A stretch of DNA of 30,501 nucleotides from NCBI GenBank assembly GCA_044356295.1, contig JBIKWN010000029.1, positions 1 to 30,501 on the forward strand, written 5' to 3'. This document shows positions 12,001 to 27,000 of this stretch, in pieces. Each line of letters opens with the position of its first letter. Position 1 is the stretch's first letter. The position numbers are program-made. The DNA is from Bdellovibrionota bacterium (GTDB lineage Bacteria > Bdellovibrionota_C > UBA2361 > JBIKWN01).

Positions 12001-15000
12001 TCAGAAAACCCATTCGTTTGAATAATCTGTTCAGCCGCTAGACGAATAGGCAGTTCTTTTTCACAGCTATAAACATGCTTTGCACCTGCTCTTGCCGCCA
12101 TCATCGATAGCAAGCCAGATCCGGTACCAATATCTAAGACTGTCTTTGTGGGAGTTACAATATTATTAATCGCATTGAGGAAGGCTTCGTTACGCTCAGT
12201 GTCGTTCATCATGTCGAAATGCCAGCTCCCGACAAGTTTACGGTGAATGAATCGAATTTGATTGAGAATCTCTAAGTCTTTTGGTTTTTCATTTAAGAGT
12301 AAATATAGATCTTCCAAGGCCGGATTCATTTCGTCATTTTTGATTTGTATCAGGGCGCGATTCCACAGAGCAAACGAATGAGTTGGATCATCAGTTAAAA
12401 TTTTATTCAGGGTACTTAATGCGTTGTCTGTGTAGCCATCAGTGATGTCATCCTGTGCAGATTGTACAAGTTGATCAATCTCTGATGATACAATCGAAGA
12501 TAGTTTTTTTTTATTGTTATTCAAGATGGTTCTTTTTTGGTGGGGGTGGGCTTAGGAAAAGAGTAAGCTTTTTTATGTAATTAGGTATCCGAGAATAATC
12601 TTATACTCGCCTAATATCAACTAAATACCGCTATACCGAACAGGATAATTATAGAGCACAACAGTCCGGTAAAAACCCGTATATGTGCTTTAAGTGATTG
12701 AAGAGTTACGACTAAACAAAGAGTTAATATTATTTCCATGTAAATTTAGTAACGCGAAGGTCGCGAAGGACGCGAAGGACTGAATCAAATCCTTCGCGTA
12801 CTTCGCGACCTTCGCGTTACAAAAAATCCCTTCAATTACTTGTAACGCAACGCATGCATAAGTTCGCTCGCAGCATTGCCAGGATTATAGCTCTCAGCGT
12901 TTTTAACGATGCTATACAATTTTTTCAATTGTTTCTGATCGATTTTTTTATTCTCTTGATTGAGTGAAGCAACAGCCATCACAAGTTGTTCAGCAAGCTG
13001 AAGATCGAACCCTGGATTTTTAGAAATAAACTCACCAAGAGCAATACGTAGTTCGTTTGAACTAACTAAGACAGATTTTTTTTGAATCGTTTCAAGTTGA
13101 TCTTCGAGATTTGCTATAGCATCTAATGAGTCAGCTTGATTACTACTCTCGTGTAACTTTGAAACATAATCAGACCATGTCGTGAGTGTACTATTTTTTG
13201 AAGCAGCAAGAATAATCGATATCGTTTCAAGATGAGTTGTATTAATACGAGGAAGACCGACTCTCTCTGAACGTGGACGAGTCATAAAACCTTTTTGACT
13301 AATACTTTGATGGCATGAAAAACATGAAAATTGTGAAAATTCTGGGAAGATTTCATGGGAACTAATATGTCTCTTGAGGTGAGCAAGGTTTCTTTTTGCG
13401 AGGTCTATTTGACCAATAACCCAACCATCTATCGCTTTGTACGATGAGTCTTTCCAGTGCCTAGGCATGACGGCTTCGTAGGTATCTAATTCAAAAGAAA
13501 TTCGAGGGTGTCCAGCTCCGTAAAGGCGATGTGTTACCTCTTTTTTTTCATCACCGTAATGACAGCTAGAACATACTTGAGCTCTCGTAGAGAGGTTTTT
13601 CAAGTCAATAAGACCATTGGCTATGTTCTGAGCGTGAGTGGCGTCTTTAGAAGTATGGGTCGAGAGCCATTGTTCACCAGCACCATGGCAACTTTCACAG
13701 CCTACGCCATCTTCGATCCTAAATTTTTCAGCTTTATGAGTGCTATTGGTAGCATGACAATCGAGGCAGAGCTTATCAGATTGTGGGCTACCAACCCCTA
13801 AAAGATAAGCTATTCGCTTAGATTCAGGGGAAAGGAGCGTTTGGAAGCTTTTTGAGTGTCTATCATACTTGTACCAAGTGACAAACTCGTTTCCTAGAAT
13901 ATTGCCTGTATTTTTCGGTGTTATTCCGCCATGACAATTAGATGATGAACAAGAACCAACACCCATTGCCTTGCTATGAAATTCCTGGGCAGACGTAAAA
14001 CGAGCACTTAGGAAGAAACCAAGAAAAATGTAAAAAAGGAAGGTCCTAAAAGAAATTGCATTAAACATCGTTCTTAGATTGATCGGAGTTAAATCTTACG
14101 CGTAATATAGCCTCGCACGTTTGTTTTTTACAACAGTAATGTCTGAGTGTTTTGAAATTGCAATTATTGGAGCCGGACCAGGTGGGTTAGGTGCTGCAAC
14201 GCGTTGTGCAAAGCTTGGGATTTCTCACATCTTGTTTGAAAAAGGTCAGATTGGTAACACCATCTATGACTATCAGCTTAGAAAGCATGTTATGGCTGAG
14301 CCAAGTAGGTTGCCACTTCGAACAGAGGTTGGTTTTCAAGCAGGCACCAGAGAGTCAATTCTTGAGGTCTGGAATTCAACTGTTCAACAGTTAAAAGTAA
14401 ATATCAAGAATGAAGAAGTCATCTCTATTAAAAAAGTAGGGGATATCTTTGAAATTTCAACTCCTTCAGGTTTGACTCAAGCAAAGTATGTAATCCTTGC
14501 AATTGGAATGCAGGGGACTCCTCGAAAAGTGGAAGTACCTGGTGGAGACCTTCCTTTTATCTCATACACTCTTGCCGATCCGGACGCTTTTTCTGGAAAA
14601 AATATATTAGTCATTGGGGCTGGTGATGCAGCTATTGAAAATGCAATAGCATTAGCCGAGAACAATAAAGTTTCCATCTTGAACAGGACAAGTGAATTTT
14701 CACGTGCAAAAGATGGTAACGTTGCACTTATCACTACTGCTATTGATAGTGAGAAAATAAAACCTTTTTACGATGCTGATCTTGCACGAGTTGAAACTGG
14801 AGTTTGTTATATCACAACTCCCGAAGGTGAGGTTTCTCAACAGGTCGATCAAATAATCGCTCGTATTGGCTGTATCATGCCAAGAAGATTTCTTGAAAGT
14901 TGTGGATTGCAATTTGCAAATAAGGAACCAACCACACCACCAACAGTGGATGAACATTATCAATCAAGTGTTCCTGGGTTGTTTGTAATTGGCGCATTAA

Positions 15001-24000: not shown

Positions 24001-27000
24001 TTTAAAAGAGAAAGCAACACTTCGCACCTCTGGTCCAGCAGCCCCTGAAGGAGGGCGAGATCTTTCTTTAATGAGAACCGGTTTCGGTGAAGCAAGGTTT
24101 CAGTGGAGAAATGGTGATCTCTATCAACGATCAAGTGTCACACCTGGTCTTGAATGGAGAGTCAGTCAAGTTCGAGACAGCATTAATCCGAAGAGCCCGT
24201 TCTATAATAAAAAATCTGCCCGCGCAAAAACTGTTGAACGGTATCAAGAAGGGCAAAGTAAAGAGAAGTGGGGTGACCTATCTAAGATTGATGGTTCACC
24301 TGATCTGAAAAAAATACTCGCACACGCAGATGATAAAATGTCATGTTTTACCTGTCATAGTTCATGGGTAACAAGTTGCGGGGGGTGCCATCTTCCAATT
24401 GAAGCAAACTGGAAAGCAAAATCAAAACACTATGATGGTAAAGAAACCAGAAATCTTGCCACGTATAATCCGCAAGTTGCTCGTGATGATATGTTTCAAC
24501 TTGGTATTCATGGTCCAGCTAAGGATGGAAAAATTGTTCCTGTTCGTTCTTCTAGTGCTCTTGTCTTAAGTTCAACTGATTCAAATCGCCAAAAAATATA
24601 TGTACAACAACCTCCAACTTCTGCCGGAGGGTACAGTTCGCAAGCTTTTGCTCCTCACTTCCCGCATACGGTTCGAACGAAAGAGACAAAAGGATGTACG
24701 GATTGCCATATCTCTAAAGACAACGACAACAATGCGATAATGGCGCAGCTACTTTTGATGGGAACCCAGTTTGTAAACTTCATGGGTTATCATACATATG
24801 TTGGAACCCAGAACGGTTTTGAAGCAATTCAAGTTACTGAATGGGAAGAGCCTCAAGCAGTCATTGGAAGCTATCTCCATCGTTATGCGTATCCAGATTT
24901 CTACAAGACTCATCAAGACCACAATAAAGAGTTAGAAACTTCACATACACATGAAGCAGAAGGTGGCGCTATAAACACAGTGCAGCTTCGCGGTGAGTAT
25001 CTGTATACCACAGCAGGTGAAGGTGGTTTCAGAGTTTTTGATGTGGCAAACGTTGCGAATAAAGGATTTTCAGAGCGATTAGTAACGGCTCCGTTTTCTC
25101 CACTTGGACAAGATACTCATGTTCCTTCAAAGAATGCGAAAAGTTTCTCACTTCCTACGAATATGCCTGTTGCTCCATTTAGAGAGCAATTACCCGAGAA
25201 CCTTGAAACTCCAATGCATCCAATCTATCACTATGCTGCAATTGCCGATGCTGAAGAAGGCCTAATACTTGTAAATGTTGATACTTTGCAAGATGGTGAT
25301 CCAACAAATAACTTCCTAGAACGAGCACTTACATGGAACCAAGATAATCTTTTAACAGGTGCACAATATATTACTCTTGCGGGAAGCAATGCATTTATTG
25401 CGACAAAAAATAAAATCATAATTCTGGATCTCGATAAACCACTCGAGCCAAAAGTTATTGTCTCGATTCCGTACGATAATCCTACTGCTGTCGCAATTCA
25501 GTTTCGTTATGCATTTGTAACTGATGCAAAAGGAATGCATGTTTTAGATATCACTACTATTAATCAACCAAGAAAAGTTGAAAAAACTATCCCCCTTACA
25601 GACGCCAGAAATATTTATCTTGCAAGAACGTATGCCTACATATCAGGCGGAAGTGACGGGATGGTCATTGTCGATATAGAAAAACCTGAAGCCCCCAAGA
25701 TATACGGAAGATTTGGAAAAGAATTTGGTTTAACAGACACAAATGACATTAAAATTGCTACGACTAATGCGTCACTGTTTGCATACGTCGCAGATGGCAA
25801 AAACGGTCTTTCAATATTCCAGTTAACCGATCCAGAACGAGTTCCTGGATTCTATGGATTTACCCCAGAAGTAAAACCTCTCCTAATTTCGCACAGAAAA
25901 ACTGAAGGTGCCGTTTTTGCAATTTCAAAACCACTTGATCGAGACCGTGCTGTTGATGAAACTGGTAATCAAGTCAGTGTATTTGGAAGAATTGGTTCCA
26001 GACCATTTAATAAGAAAGAAATGGAATCTCTATTTTTGCTCTCTGATAAACGAATATATACGGTAGAAAAATAATATGTTTATTAAAATCTCTGCTTATT
26101 TGCTTGCAGTAGGTGTTTGCTTGGGGGCGTTTGGAGCTCATGCTCTAAAAGCACGTTTTGGTGAATATGAATTAGGCATCTGGAATACTGCTACGCTCTA
26201 CCTTTTTATTCATTGCTTAGCTCTTCTTGTTATTACCATAGCTCAAAAAGCTGGTGTGCTTACTACTGAATCAGTCATTATTACTCAATACTGCTTTCTT
26301 TTTGGGACTTTGATTTTTTCTGGTTCTTTGTATGCTTTAGCCCTGACTGGAATCAAAATACTTGGTGCAATTACCCCGATTGGAGGGACTTTATTTATCG
26401 CTGGCTGGGTTCTGTTTGCACTTAGGTCATAAAAAAACCTGTCGTTAAAATATAAAAATGAGACTAGAATAGTACTAAGACTACTTACCTTGGTTTAGCT
26501 TGAATCAGCAAAGTTCGAAGCGACACACTAATTCTCATCCACGCGGAGTTTTACCGCTTACAGAGGTTTCATTCCCAACTCAGCGAATTAATCTTGTTCG
26601 AGGTTTTTCTGTTGATGAAAATAAAACTCACCGGATTGATCAAATCTTTACTGTAAAAGATGGGCACCTATTTTTCGGAGTTCCTGTTTCAAGTGAACCT
26701 CTAAATACTGAAATCTCAACTTCAATTGGTAAAAGTTTAGAACCAGGCATGATAATTCCTGGCTTAGTTTGTCGTGTTCCATTTGATGAACATGGATTTG
26801 GAAAGCCAGAGTTCTATAATACTATGCTTGAGAATGTGCAGCGCATGACTCCTGCTGAGCTTGGAGATGATCTTTTCAATCAAAAACATCCAGAACTTTT
26901 AATTCTTGAGAAAGCCTTAAAGCAATTTCATGCAGATAGAACCTGTGAGGTACTTCCATGGGTTTATTCAGATCCCTATGAGGCAATCATGGGCGAGCCC

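Follow-up and report, generated by a model that had tools for sequence, protein, structure and literature searches.

An eight-gene cluster in Bdellovibrionota and other bacteria whose most likely role is electron transport from cytoplasmic NAD(P)H through a candidate di-haem membrane protein to about 25 c-type haems

In Shewanella and Geobacter, the porin-cytochrome conduits MtrCAB, Pcc and Ext receive their electrons from quinol by way of CymA, ImcH or CbcL. In NADPH oxidase, ferric reductase, STEAP and MsrQ-Fre, electrons pass from NAD(P)H through flavin and two stacked b haems to an acceptor across the membrane. A further design is that of formate dehydrogenase-N, in which a four-cluster ferredoxin subunit (FdnH) sits on a di-haem b membrane subunit (FdnI), and of the Hmc and Tmc complexes of sulphate reducers, in which a periplasmic multihaem c is joined through cytochrome b to a cytoplasmic FeS protein and electrons flow inward, from very low-potential donors.

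Closer to the locus described here is the ptdABCDEFG operon of a 2024 preprint, whose authors call its function 'completely unknown' (bioRxiv 10.1101/2023.11.21.568154). A 2026 preprint describes, in its available text, a cytochrome of Ferrigenium straubiae named NHC, whose FHA domain lies in the cytosol and is linked by a single TM helix to a nonahaem domain in the periplasm, and which is expressed under all conditions tested (bioRxiv 10.64898/2026.01.22.701106). The initial annotation of our locus had missed the first preprint, which names the core, and had set the second aside as being on another subject, although it places the FHA-nonahaem cytochrome beside 5-TM and 4Fe-4S proteins.

We analyzed a stretch of 30,501 nucleotides from a Bdellovibrionota bacterium, hereafter the window, in which the following genes were considered:

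g43, 12836..14068, minus strand: secreted c-type cytochrome, candidate periplasmic shuttle; PtdD by architecture and position
g44, 14121..15554, plus strand: FAD/NAD(P)H flavoprotein of thioredoxin-reductase fold, ending in a cNMP-binding domain; PtdC counterpart
g45, 15555..16472, plus strand: N-terminal cNMP-binding domain and four-cluster [4Fe-4S] ferredoxin domain, cytoplasmic; corresponds to PtdE
g46, 16472..17296, plus strand: inner-membrane protein with 5 TM helices, candidate di-haem cytochrome b; corresponds to PtdF
g47, 17297..18862, plus strand: FHA domain in the cytoplasm and decahaem c domain in the periplasm, joined by a single TM helix; PtdG counterpart
g48, 18859..20706, plus strand: lipoprotein with three HbpS/GlcG-like (DUF336) stretches
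g49, 20684..22411, plus strand: outer-membrane beta-barrel of the alginate-export-like class
g50, 22412..26074, plus strand: secreted protein of 1220 aa with 10 CxxCH and a C-terminal LVIVD beta-propeller
g51, 26076..26432, plus strand: DUF423 membrane protein (PF04241, 7e-26), 2 nt past g50

An ORF check confirmed the eight genes g43-g50 at the coordinates and strands initially annotated, and a Pfam search of g43-g50 and a motif count likewise reproduced the annotated domains and the CxxCH counts of 4, 10 and 10 for g43, g47 and g50. Neighboring ORFs from g44 to g50 abut or overlap (by at most 23 nt), so a single operon fits. Because its tblastn matches begin at residue 7-11, translation of g44 may in fact begin at the ATG at 14139; g49 may start 9 nt later.

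The eight-gene cluster is real and widely conserved: a synteny survey places it in Bdellovibrionota, Nitrospinota, Gammaproteobacteria, Alphaproteobacteria and Burkholderiales, that is, in at least five phylum- or class-level groups, well beyond order UBA2361. Within the phylum, a g47 homologue was matched in 71 of 124 genomes at E<=1e-5, a few of these matches being partial. Among 20 same-phylum loci (19 genomes) chosen for a g47 match within a long contig, 18 have g43-g47 in colinear order and 17 have g48-g50 downstream, while in one further locus the contig stops within g49. Only g44-g47 are present at L037, which is the second copy of a genome, and at L051. Across 94 unique loci, g44-g50 are colinear in 45, most of the others being cut by contig ends, and g46 directly follows g45 in 82, all synteny counts being conditional on the g47 or g45 match by which the loci were selected. 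The g47|g48 junction is the only insertion point of unrelated cargo genes in the loci compared, g43 travels with g50 (adjoining it in Gammaproteobacteria and Burkholderiales), and in Alphaproteobacteria another porin and pentahaem pair accompanies the same core. In the Burkholderiales loci g46-g47 are not adjacent to g45 and are kept apart from g44-g45, an arrangement that counts against a g44-g47 chain.

The inner core of the cluster is already in print, since by architecture it matches ptdC–G: in the available text of the preprint PtdC is an FAD/NAD(P) oxidoreductase (g44), PtdD a tetrahaem cytochrome (g43), PtdE a cNMP and 4Fe-4S protein (g45), PtdF a 'ferric reductase-like' TM protein (g46) and PtdG a decahaem cytochrome (g47) (bioRxiv 10.1101/2023.11.21.568154). 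The operon differs in that PtdA (a pentahaem with a beta-sandwich) and PtdB (a porin) take the place of g48-g49-g50, in that two FeS clusters are counted where g45 has four motifs, and in that only saline habitats are reported, whereas DNA of this window is contained in lake-water runs. Two alphaproteobacterial loci, L105 and L120, have the ptd layout, with an upstream pentahaem and a haem-free, porin-sized protein of 532-536 aa; the L120 protein in the PtdB position (532 aa) and g49 are not similar in sequence. The words FHA, forkhead, propeller and Bdellovibrio do not occur in the available text of that preprint (bioRxiv 10.1101/2023.11.21.568154). The NHC cluster shares the FHA/TM/multihaem plan and the neighboring 5-TM and [4Fe-4S] proteins, a trio that by description looks like g45-g47, but has nine haems instead of ten and lies near nirK; in the available text no outer module is described, and the authors saw no redox motif in the 5-TM protein (bioRxiv 10.64898/2026.01.22.701106). 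We found neither the g48–g50 outer module, nor the di-haem b assignment, nor the two-module structure in print.

On the cytoplasmic side, g44 matches Pyr_redox_3 (1e-37) and cNMP_binding (2.5e-15, residues 371-449), and its best NCBIfam model is YpdA, with a score far under the cut-off of that model. In an alignment of 87 sequences both Rossmann motifs are kept while no cysteine and no CxxC is conserved, so that g44 looks like a pyridine-nucleotide:acceptor flavoprotein rather than a disulphide reductase. For g45, which matches cNMP_binding (1e-23, residues 12-100) and Fer4 families as well as the HydN, AegA, DmsB, DsrO and HybA models, 15 sequences share 16 invariant cysteines in four motifs, indicating four [4Fe-4S] clusters instead of the two initially annotated. 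We take this four-motif pattern to be that of the HydN/DmsB/HybA class, whose ferredoxin proteins normally dock on a membrane subunit. Phosphate-binding-cassette residues are conserved in both cNMP domains (GEM...RRRSAT in 87 sequences of g44; G62, E63, M64, A65, R74 and A76 invariant in 15 sequences of g45). In Alphaproteobacteria g44 and g45 form one protein of 786-790 aa (Pyr_redox, 2 cNMP and Fer4), and at a Burkholderiales locus the two share one reading frame.

The membrane protein g46 had been described as a 4-TM protein with no recognizable cofactor site. Its predicted model (pLDDT 95) instead has 5 TM helices and a cytoplasmic helical insert of ~110 aa, and four histidines, H83, H97, H250 and H264, recur without exception across 81 sequences (25-61% identity). 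They form pairs 14 residues apart on TM3 and TM5, with H83/H250 toward the cytoplasmic and H97/H264 toward the periplasmic side. The g46 of this window matches no Pfam family, and hhalign against E. coli MsrQ and against YodB was not significant; among its 81 relatives, however, PF01292 (prokaryotic cytochrome b561) is matched by 22, PF01794 (Ferric_reduct) by six and DUF4405 by two at E<=0.01, the b561 matches being weak (best E 1.5e-6). Four invariant histidines on two TM helices together with these matches make g46 a candidate di-haem cytochrome b, and offer a candidate answer to how electrons cross the membrane. The proposed placing of b haems between His pairs on two helices resembles that in the NADPH oxidase/ferric reductase group, from which the cluster differs in having 5 helices instead of 6, a family match confined to relatives of g46, and an FeS wire between flavin and haems. 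The ferredoxin-on-di-haem-b design is that of FdnH/FdnI and Hmc/Tmc/DsrMKJOP, with Hmc and Tmc also having a multihaem c joined through cytochrome b, but the FeS subunit here is cytoplasmic and carries a cNMP domain, and a molybdopterin or Hdr-like partner is absent. A contact between the ferredoxin domain of g45 and g46 is predicted with weak support (0.56 vs 0.00 for the best of 3 controls; at least 81% of contacts shared between runs, partner pLDDT at least 73).

A di-haem b protein next to a multihaem c is also the design of Geobacter CbcL, and g46 and g47 could constitute a quinol:cytochrome c oxidoreductase feeding the outer module, with g44/g45 as a regulatory or secondary input. The b561-family matches and the separation of g46-g47 from g44-g45 in Burkholderiales would agree with such a conduit, which we nevertheless consider improbable, since the four genes g44-g45-g46-g47 are adjacent in most loci, a purely quinol path would leave the cytoplasmic four-cluster ferredoxin without a role, and a g45-g46 contact is predicted with weak support.

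g47 matches FHA (residues 29-91, 1.5e-9) and c3/c7 families, with a hydrophobic helix at ~127-155 and 10 CxxCH, a number kept in all 74 complete homologous ORFs. In g43, which has a hydrophobic N-terminus and matches Cytochrome_C554 (E 4e-10), four CxxCH are accompanied by one CX4CH starting at residue 40, whose C40, C45 and H46 are invariant in 41 sequences. This motif, overlooked in the initial count of 24 c haems, makes g43 a candidate pentahaem and raises the cluster to 25 candidate c-haem sites.

The initial annotation had also proposed that cytoplasmic cNMP redox proteins are connected to periplasmic multihaems and wired to cNMP/FHA signaling. The electron path gains support from the g46 histidines and the g44-g45 fusion, while the wiring stays conjectural, given that FHA is present in 55 of 67 g47 homologues and absent altogether in five, and that its phosphothreonine-contacting Ser is kept in only 16 of 62. 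The three signaling-type domains of the cluster, and the partnership of HbpS, to which the g48 domains are related, with a redox-sensing two-component system in Streptomyces, could be taken to mean that the haems report the periplasmic redox state inward through the FHA and cNMP proteins with zero net flux. We regard such a sensor as very improbable, because cNMP-binding and FHA domains receive signals and do not emit them, a domain search of the cluster and the genes flanking it found neither a kinase nor a cyclase nor a DNA-binding domain, and ~25 c haems, four FeS clusters and a flavin far exceed the needs of a sensor.

In the outer module, the N-terminus of g48 reads LNSC followed by a Gly-rich linker; the protein matches PF03928 in three stretches (6.6e-19), contains no CxxCH, and has EfgA/GlcG and HbpS as its PDB sequence matches. 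The 'secreted unknown' g49 matches no Pfam family and gives a weak porin match in a profile search, but its ESM Atlas structural neighbors belong to the 'Alginate export family' (TM 0.88-0.89 over ~520 residues), and its hydrophobic, alternating tail ends in Y or F in 51 of 51 homologues, identifying an outer-membrane beta-barrel. g50 (LVIVD and c3/c7 families, with 10 CxxCH within residues 43-766) has relatives in at least 7997 clusters at E<=1e-10, all named 'hypothetical protein' among the matches listed, and no related solved structure was found by sequence or profile search. With the porin-cytochrome conduits the cluster shares a decahaem that spans the periplasm and, at the outer membrane, a barrel and a partner lipoprotein, and the ExtM model matches g50 locally with 94 bits (under the 800-bit cut-off); the differences lie in the input, here a cytoplasmic flavoprotein and FeS module, in the lack of c haems in g48, and in the barrel class.

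A barrel of the alginate-export-like class may not be wide enough to enclose a cytochrome, in which case g50 could be a periplasmic enzyme whose soluble substrate enters by g49, a barrel of a substrate-channel class, with the same inner chain, g48 as an accessory or haem-handling protein, and nothing leaving the cell. g50 is the best-conserved protein of the cluster (55-70% identity across phyla), which suggests catalysis rather than a wire, its haem-bearing part has an enzyme-like spacing of one haem per ~75 residues, and MsrPQ with Fre offers a precedent for a path from a cytoplasmic flavin reductase through a haem b protein to a periplasmic reductase. Against this stand the 12 invariant non-CxxCH histidines within residues 24-800, enough for a sixth ligand on every haem, and a search of g50 that found no catalytic motif in a poor model (pLDDT 54); we consider a periplasmic reductase rather unlikely.

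From domains, cofactor motifs and their conservation, topology, synteny and fusions we infer the electron-transfer steps, direction, gating and acceptor as follows. The cluster most likely carries electrons from NAD(P)H through FeS clusters and a two-haem membrane protein to ~25 c haems in the periplasm and at the outer membrane. We give about an even chance to the fuller proposal of a two-module, cNMP-gated redox chain leading from cytoplasmic NAD(P)H out to the outer membrane and bypassing the quinone pool. In this chain g44 would oxidize NAD(P)H through its FAD and pass electrons to the four [4Fe-4S] clusters of g45, which would dock at the cytoplasmic face of g46; two b haems, held between His83/His250 and His97/His264, would conduct them through the membrane to the ten periplasmic c haems of g47, anchored by its single helix beside g46. 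Soluble g43 would bridge g47 to g50, acting at the outer membrane with barrel g49 and lipoprotein g48, and Fe(III) or Mn oxides (reductive metal uptake), oxygen or nitrogen species are candidate final acceptors. Since electron export costs reducing power and membrane potential, we propose that the two cNMP domains, C-terminal in g44 and N-terminal in g45, gate the transfer from FAD to FeS on binding cAMP or cGMP; the genome encodes four cyclases of class III and five kinases of the Hanks type. The FHA domain of g47 may have an accessory part in docking or regulation.

Electrons flowing in to NAD(P)+ would move against both redox potential and membrane potential, so that reducing NAD(P)+ from c-type haems across an energized membrane would be uphill twice, which argues for the outward direction. 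Uptake, in which outer or periplasmic cytochromes would take electrons, for example from Fe(II), and deliver them, by way of g47 and then g46, either to quinones of the pool or to a cytoplasmic acceptor, appears rather unlikely on these grounds, and also because no quinone site was identified, because the flavoprotein and the four-cluster ferredoxin, one protein in some phyla, are readily understood as the entry point for NAD(P)H, and because most carriers found are heterotroph-like or predator lineages (Bdellovibrionota, Woeseiaceae, Steroidobacteraceae, Cognaticolwellia). FdnI/NarI-type two-haem b proteins do have quinone sites, however, and the cluster is present in the lithotrophic Nitrospinota. 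For 27 Gallionellaceae genomes a 'Forkhead-associated protein' with 10 haems is tabulated. The 2026 preprint on Fe(II) oxidizers, in its available text, favors inward flow to quinone for the FHA-multihaem flanked by 5-TM and 4Fe-4S proteins, which counts against the outward reading (bioRxiv 10.64898/2026.01.22.701106).

Lastly, g51 adjoins the cluster in only one of the 94 unique loci, that of the same-genus relative L048, and its membership in the cluster is doubtful.

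All eight open reading frames of the cluster lie exactly where the initial annotation had placed them. Pfam reproduced every domain it had claimed, and a motif count gave the same 4, 10 and 10 CxxCH sites in the secreted cytochrome g43, the FHA-decahaem protein g47 and the decahaem LVIVD protein g50; the transmembrane segment claimed for g47 corresponds to a hydrophobic helix at about residues 127-155. The genes g44 to g50 follow one another closely.

Gene junctions of the cluster (end of the first gene/start of the second, strand, relation)
15554/15555, + strand: flavoprotein g44 and cyclic-nucleotide-binding ferredoxin g45, abutting
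16472/16472, + strand: g45 and membrane protein g46, overlap
17296/17297, + strand: g46 and FHA-decahaem protein g47, abutting
18862/18859, + strand: g47 and HbpS-like lipoprotein g48, overlap
20706/20684, + strand: g48 and predicted barrel g49, overlap
22411/22412, + strand: g49 and decahaem LVIVD protein g50, abutting

This arrangement is the layout of a single translationally coupled operon, and g43 is read divergently from g44, 52 nt upstream. A promoter and terminator scan of the cluster gave no usable signal, with fewer sites than in shuffled sequences, and a search of sequencing runs listed no RNA run that carries the window's sequence. Three start codons are uncertain: that of g44 (14121 or 14139; homologues align from residue 7-11), that of g49 (20684 or 20693; the ESM Atlas record begins at residue 4) and that of g50 (22412 or about 22457; the database record has 1205 aa, not 1220). 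According to Pfam, the flanks are of a housekeeping kind (ribosomal proteins, PRPP synthetase, IspH, a PfkB kinase, CutA), and no kinase, cyclase or regulator gene adjoins the cluster in the flanks within the window. The genome encodes four class III cyclases and five Hanks-type kinases above cut-off, none linked to the cluster, which could supply its signals.

Of 124 genomes from the phylum, 71 have a g47 homologue at E<=1e-5, among them 42 of the 73 high-quality genomes; a few of these matches are partial. Among 20 long loci from 19 of the g47-positive phylum genomes, g43-g47 are colinear in 18 and g48-g50 follow in 17, with one further locus whose contig ends inside g49; two loci (L037 and L051) hold g44-g47 only, the former being a second copy within one genome. 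A locus scan with the g45 alignment, taking one genome per species, retrieved at least 591 relatives among 600 candidate stretches, and a scan with g46 alone as query retrieved no relative. The best 80 of the g45 relatives come from MAGs labelled Bdellovibrionota, Nitrospinota, Woeseiaceae, Steroidobacteraceae, other Gammaproteobacteria, Burkholderiales and Alphaproteobacteria, and from a single isolate, Cognaticolwellia sediminilitoris KCTC 52213 (L127), which carries g44-g50 followed by g43, so that genetics are possible.

Across 94 unique loci, g44-g50 are colinear in 45 (g43 lies divergently upstream in 21 of these) and g46 directly follows g45 in 82, shorter patterns being mostly cut by contig ends; these synteny counts, like those within the phylum, are conditional on the loci having been picked through a g47 or g45 match. 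Judged from coordinates, by a check that reproduces the known position of g43 in another locus (L103), a g43 homologue stands directly after g50 in three gammaproteobacterial genomes. The order is g48-g49-g50-g43-g44-g45 in Burkholderiales, with g46-g47 elsewhere, and g46-g47-g43-g44-g45 in one further locus (L118). Chance falls far short of explaining how the same eight families have stayed together in these groups at identities of 25-70%; the cluster is real, and the observation stronger than the initial annotation knew.

Unrelated genes are inserted only at the g47|g48 junction, the Burkholderiales rearrangements break the cluster next to it, in Alphaproteobacteria a pentahaem protein of 617-661 aa and a haem-free one of 532-536 aa take the place of g48-g50 beside the core, and g43 travels with g50. 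On these grounds we interpret the cluster as two modules, an inner one of g44-g47 and an outer, exchangeable one of g48-g50, linked by g43. The inner module occurs twice in one Bdellovibrionota genome, on its contig C1 at about 1.91 Mb and 2.52 Mb (L036 and L037), one copy having g43 and g48-g50 and the other g44-g47 only. Two cargoes of about 4 kb sit exactly at the g47|g48 junction, one encoding a DUF4172-Fic protein (L034:7620-11578) and the other a GH5 glycosidase, a MarR-GNAT fusion and a phosphorylase (L042:7152-11992).

In the outer module, the lipoprotein g48 contains three stretches resembling GlcG/HbpS and lacks CxxCH motifs. Its neighbour g49, previously described as a secreted unknown, has 'alginate export family' barrels as structural neighbours in the ESM Atlas (TM 0.88-0.89 over about 520 residues), and the last residue is Y or F in all 51 homologues; it is an outer-membrane beta-barrel and not a soluble protein. 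The linking cytochrome g43 has a conserved CX4CH motif as its fifth site. Conservation within the cluster is highest in g50, whose family comprises at least 7997 clusters at 90% identity (E<=1e-10); the source names shown among the 120 listed relatives are all 'hypothetical protein'. A search for solved relatives of g50 in the PDB found none by sequence and a single row at E 0.097 by profile, and the AlphaFold model of residues 24-800, for which 45 sequences were used, was of poor quality (mean pLDDT 54), its best Foldseek match, at E 3.7, giving nothing usable.

At the other end of the cluster, g44 is a flavoprotein of the thioredoxin-reductase fold that scores 69.8 bits against the TRX_reduct model (cut-off 343). 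A role as thioredoxin or bacillithiol-disulphide reductase was ruled out because no Cys, and hence no redox CxxC, is conserved in 87 homologues. Both g44 (57 bits) and g45 (83 bits) exceed the PF00027 cut-off of 27.5, and their phosphate-binding cassettes are well preserved, with GEM invariant and RRRSAT kept at 90% or more in the 87 g44 homologues and GEMA...R..A invariant in 15 g45 sequences; by model score and cassette alike, both contain cyclic-nucleotide-binding (cNMP) domains, for which ligand binding is predicted. The ferredoxin part of g45 contains 16 invariant Cys in four motifs.

Cysteine motifs of g45 (all invariant in 15 sequences)
C154/157/160/164: motif 1
C191/194/199/203: motif 2
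C222/225/228/232: motif 3
C266/269/278/282: motif 4

The 2x[4Fe-4S] assigned earlier was thus an undercount, four motifs corresponding to four clusters. The best NCBIfam matches of g45 are the AegA N-terminus, HydN, DmsB and DsrO, and also HybA, the best ones all below equivalog cut-offs, and its motifs place g45 among the four-cluster ferredoxin subunits of the HydN/DmsB/HybA/NrfC class. Members of this class form a wire roughly 40 Å long that is normally docked on a membrane subunit.

Direct evidence that g44 and g45 function jointly comes from their fusion. They form one protein of 786-790 aa in alphaproteobacterial loci, in the order Pyr_redox, cNMP, cNMP, Fer4, and share one reading frame in a Burkholderiales locus. 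The fusion also sets both cNMP domains next to each other, with the flavin on one side and the clusters on the other.

Fused g44-g45 proteins (Alphaproteobacteria and a Burkholderiales MAG)
L105:7912-10272: two tandem cNMP domains mid-protein
L120:7891-10260: two tandem cNMP domains mid-protein
L111:7552-9924: two tandem cNMP domains mid-protein
L103:6718-9942: two tandem cNMP domains mid-protein

The membrane protein g46 had been described as having four transmembrane segments and no recognisable cofactor site, and neither description holds. Its family has 1300 representatives at E<=0.001; of the 150 relatives listed, 80 were aligned with the query and 70 were left out because they had two-stretch matches, truncations or long extensions. 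Eight columns are invariant in these 81 sequences, including H83 and H97 on TM3 and H250 and H264 on TM5, spaced i/i+14. In a confident AlphaFold model (pLDDT 95, pTM 0.87), four helices span residues 13-31, 43-65, 76-97 and 106-130; they are followed by a helical insert on the cytoplasmic side and by a long last helix, the end of which, at about 240-271, forms the fifth membrane span. The conserved R65-K66-R67 loop points to the cytoplasm, which puts H83/H250 near the cytoplasmic face and H97/H264 near the periplasmic face. Pairs of His 14 residues apart on two helices are the classic bis-haem arrangement of cytochrome b and of the ferric-reductase family. The protein thus has the four conserved axial His expected of a two-haem cytochrome b, with haem spacing judged from the sequence, and is a candidate carrier of two b haems whose four invariant His offer a testable route through the membrane.

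Independently of the His pattern, PF01292 (prokaryotic cytochrome b561, Ni_hydr_CYTB) is weakly matched by 22 of the 81 sequences (best E 1.5e-6), PF01794 (Ferric_reduct) by six and PF14358 (DUF4405) by two, and the g46 of the window has no Pfam match at E<=0.01. With hhalign the family gave no significant alignment to either MsrQ (Prob 0.5) or YodB (Prob 0.1) of E. coli, Foldseek returned nothing at E<=0.001 for the model (top rows F-BAR and other long helices), and a wide VIA-align search gave only non-discriminating helical-bundle scores. The profile matched only designed helical bundles among PDB sequences, through the cytoplasmic insert (best E 0.023), and no fused domain was found in eight relatives of odd length. 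When g46 was co-folded with two haems and the ferredoxin domain of g45, the median score of three runs was 0.56 and the best of three controls reached 0.00; the runs agree in at least 81% of contacts with a partner pLDDT of at least 73, and the result is rated by the method as weak support.

Exactly ten CxxCH motifs are present in all 74 complete g47 homologues, the five with fewer being cut by contig ends. The FHA domain of g47 scores 38.6 bits against a PF00498 cut-off of 20.7 and keeps G31 R32, S46, H49 and N73. An FHA domain is matched by 55 of 67 aligned g47 sequences and the phospho-independent YscD-type model by 53 of 67; the Gly-Arg pair is kept in 63/63 homologues, the His in 60/62 and the Asn in 52/62. 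Five short Bdellovibrionota forms lack any FHA domain, and the phosphothreonine-contacting Ser, present in the g47 of the window, occurs in only 16/62 homologues, which argues that the domain is an accessory one; it may read phosphothreonine in the window's g47, and such reading is probably not family-wide. The YscD/TagH-like FHA matches might have pointed to type III or type VI secretion, a link we rejected because no secretion genes lie nearby. Two Nitrospinota homologues of g47, of 898-929 aa (L071:10781-13474 and L077:8767-11553), contain a strong WD40 beta-propeller (E about 1e-50) besides their ten CxxCH.

The proposal that the parts form an electron conduit is partly supported, with four factual corrections, to the cofactor site, the cluster count, g49 and g43. 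For the cluster as a whole we infer function, flow direction and regulation as follows. Electrons would pass from NAD(P)H to the FAD of g44, the four [4Fe-4S] clusters of g45 and the two b haems of g46, and then through ten c haems in g47 and five in g43 to the ten of g50 at the barrel and lipoprotein; g50 may act outside the cell or in the periplasm. From standard bioenergetics, inward flow to NAD(P)+ would run against midpoint potentials and membrane potential, so that outward would be the only downhill direction. Outward flow would also run down the membrane potential and use up reducing power, which gives a reason for placing the chain under tight allosteric control, exerted by the two cNMP domains located exactly between flavin and clusters.

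Parts of this system appear in two preprints. One names the core within an operon ptdABCDEFG, calls PtdF (g46 by architecture) 'ferric reductase-like' and the function 'completely unknown', and counts 2x[4Fe-4S] for PtdE, an undercount by the motifs of g45 (bioRxiv 10.1101/2023.11.21.568154). By the description of the ptd genes, the window shares the core of adjoining oxidoreductase, cNMP-FeS, transmembrane, decahaem and tetrahaem genes. These core families stand beside a pentahaem and porin-sized haem-free gene pair in two alphaproteobacterial loci (L105 and L120). The window lacks the full ptdABCDEFG, having no 5-CxxCH protein of about 620 aa; instead g48-g50 stand in place of PtdA/PtdB, and g49 shows no similarity to the 532-aa haem-free protein at the PtdB position of L120 (BLASTP E 0.34). 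The other preprint, on Ferrigenium straubiae, describes an FHA-nonahaem cytochrome, a combination it regards as not previously reported for multihaem cytochromes, with a 4Fe-4S protein and a 5-TM protein with 'no matches to redox active' motifs; it favours inward flow to quinone and could not explain electron passage through the 5-TM protein (bioRxiv 10.64898/2026.01.22.701106). A Gallionellaceae pangenome table records a 10-haem 'Forkhead-associated protein' in 27 genomes, and a Tenderiales paper, in the passages on its LVIVD protein, states no haems for it. Literature searches on FHA/cNMP/LVIVD multihaem systems turned up no account of the g48-g50 module, of the four His conserved in g46, of the four-cluster count of g45, or of the g44-g45 fusion and outer-module swap; the supplementary tables of the preprints may list more. 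Nor does the cluster correspond to an MtrCAB-type porin-cytochrome complex, which has a haem-bearing outer lipoprotein and a barrel wide enough to sheath a decahaem protein, whereas g48 has no CxxCH and g49 has alginate-export-class barrels as structural neighbours. The cluster belongs to a kind of system only just being noticed rather than categorically new.

A broader reading, which we regard as rather unlikely, is that of a bacterial counterpart of NADPH oxidase/ferric reductase, stretched over two membranes, cNMP-switched and quinone-independent, in which NAD(P)H and the membrane potential drive electrons through FeS clusters, b haems and about 25 c haems to the surface. If true, the cNMP domains would decide whether flavoprotein and FeS subunit engage, so that a second messenger would control one step of electron transfer by acting on the proteins themselves. 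The machine would serve to acquire metals by reduction or to carry out redox chemistry outside the cell in oxic waters, and it would exist in at least five phylum- or class-level bacterial groups. A quinone-bypassing, NAD(P)H-fed route would be a new form of outward electron delivery for Gram-negative bacteria, and a redox chain gated directly by cNMP would be regulated in a way that is new. The system, whose core the two preprints met and left unexplained, is very common (at least 7997 clusters for g50, 1300 representatives for g46) and has no assigned function; its carriers, lake and marine Bdellovibrionota, Nitrospinota, Woeseiaceae, Steroidobacteraceae and Burkholderiales, are groups relevant to nitrogen, iron and carbon cycling.

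Four further genes of the window deserve mention.

6801-8267, + strand: O-antigen-ligase-like (Wzy_C) protein, upstream among housekeeping genes
9393-10004, + strand: protein with a prepilin-type N-methylation motif, upstream among housekeeping genes
11304-12524, - strand: 406-aa protein with a PrmA-type methyltransferase domain and a PRMT_C oligomerisation subdomain (E 3.9e-12)
26500-28755, + strand: 751-aa protein with no Pfam or NCBIfam family

The last is kept beside the cluster only in a same-genus relative (L048), at 61% identity, and the 406-aa protein has the architecture of a eukaryote-style protein arginine methyltransferase, here in a bacterium.
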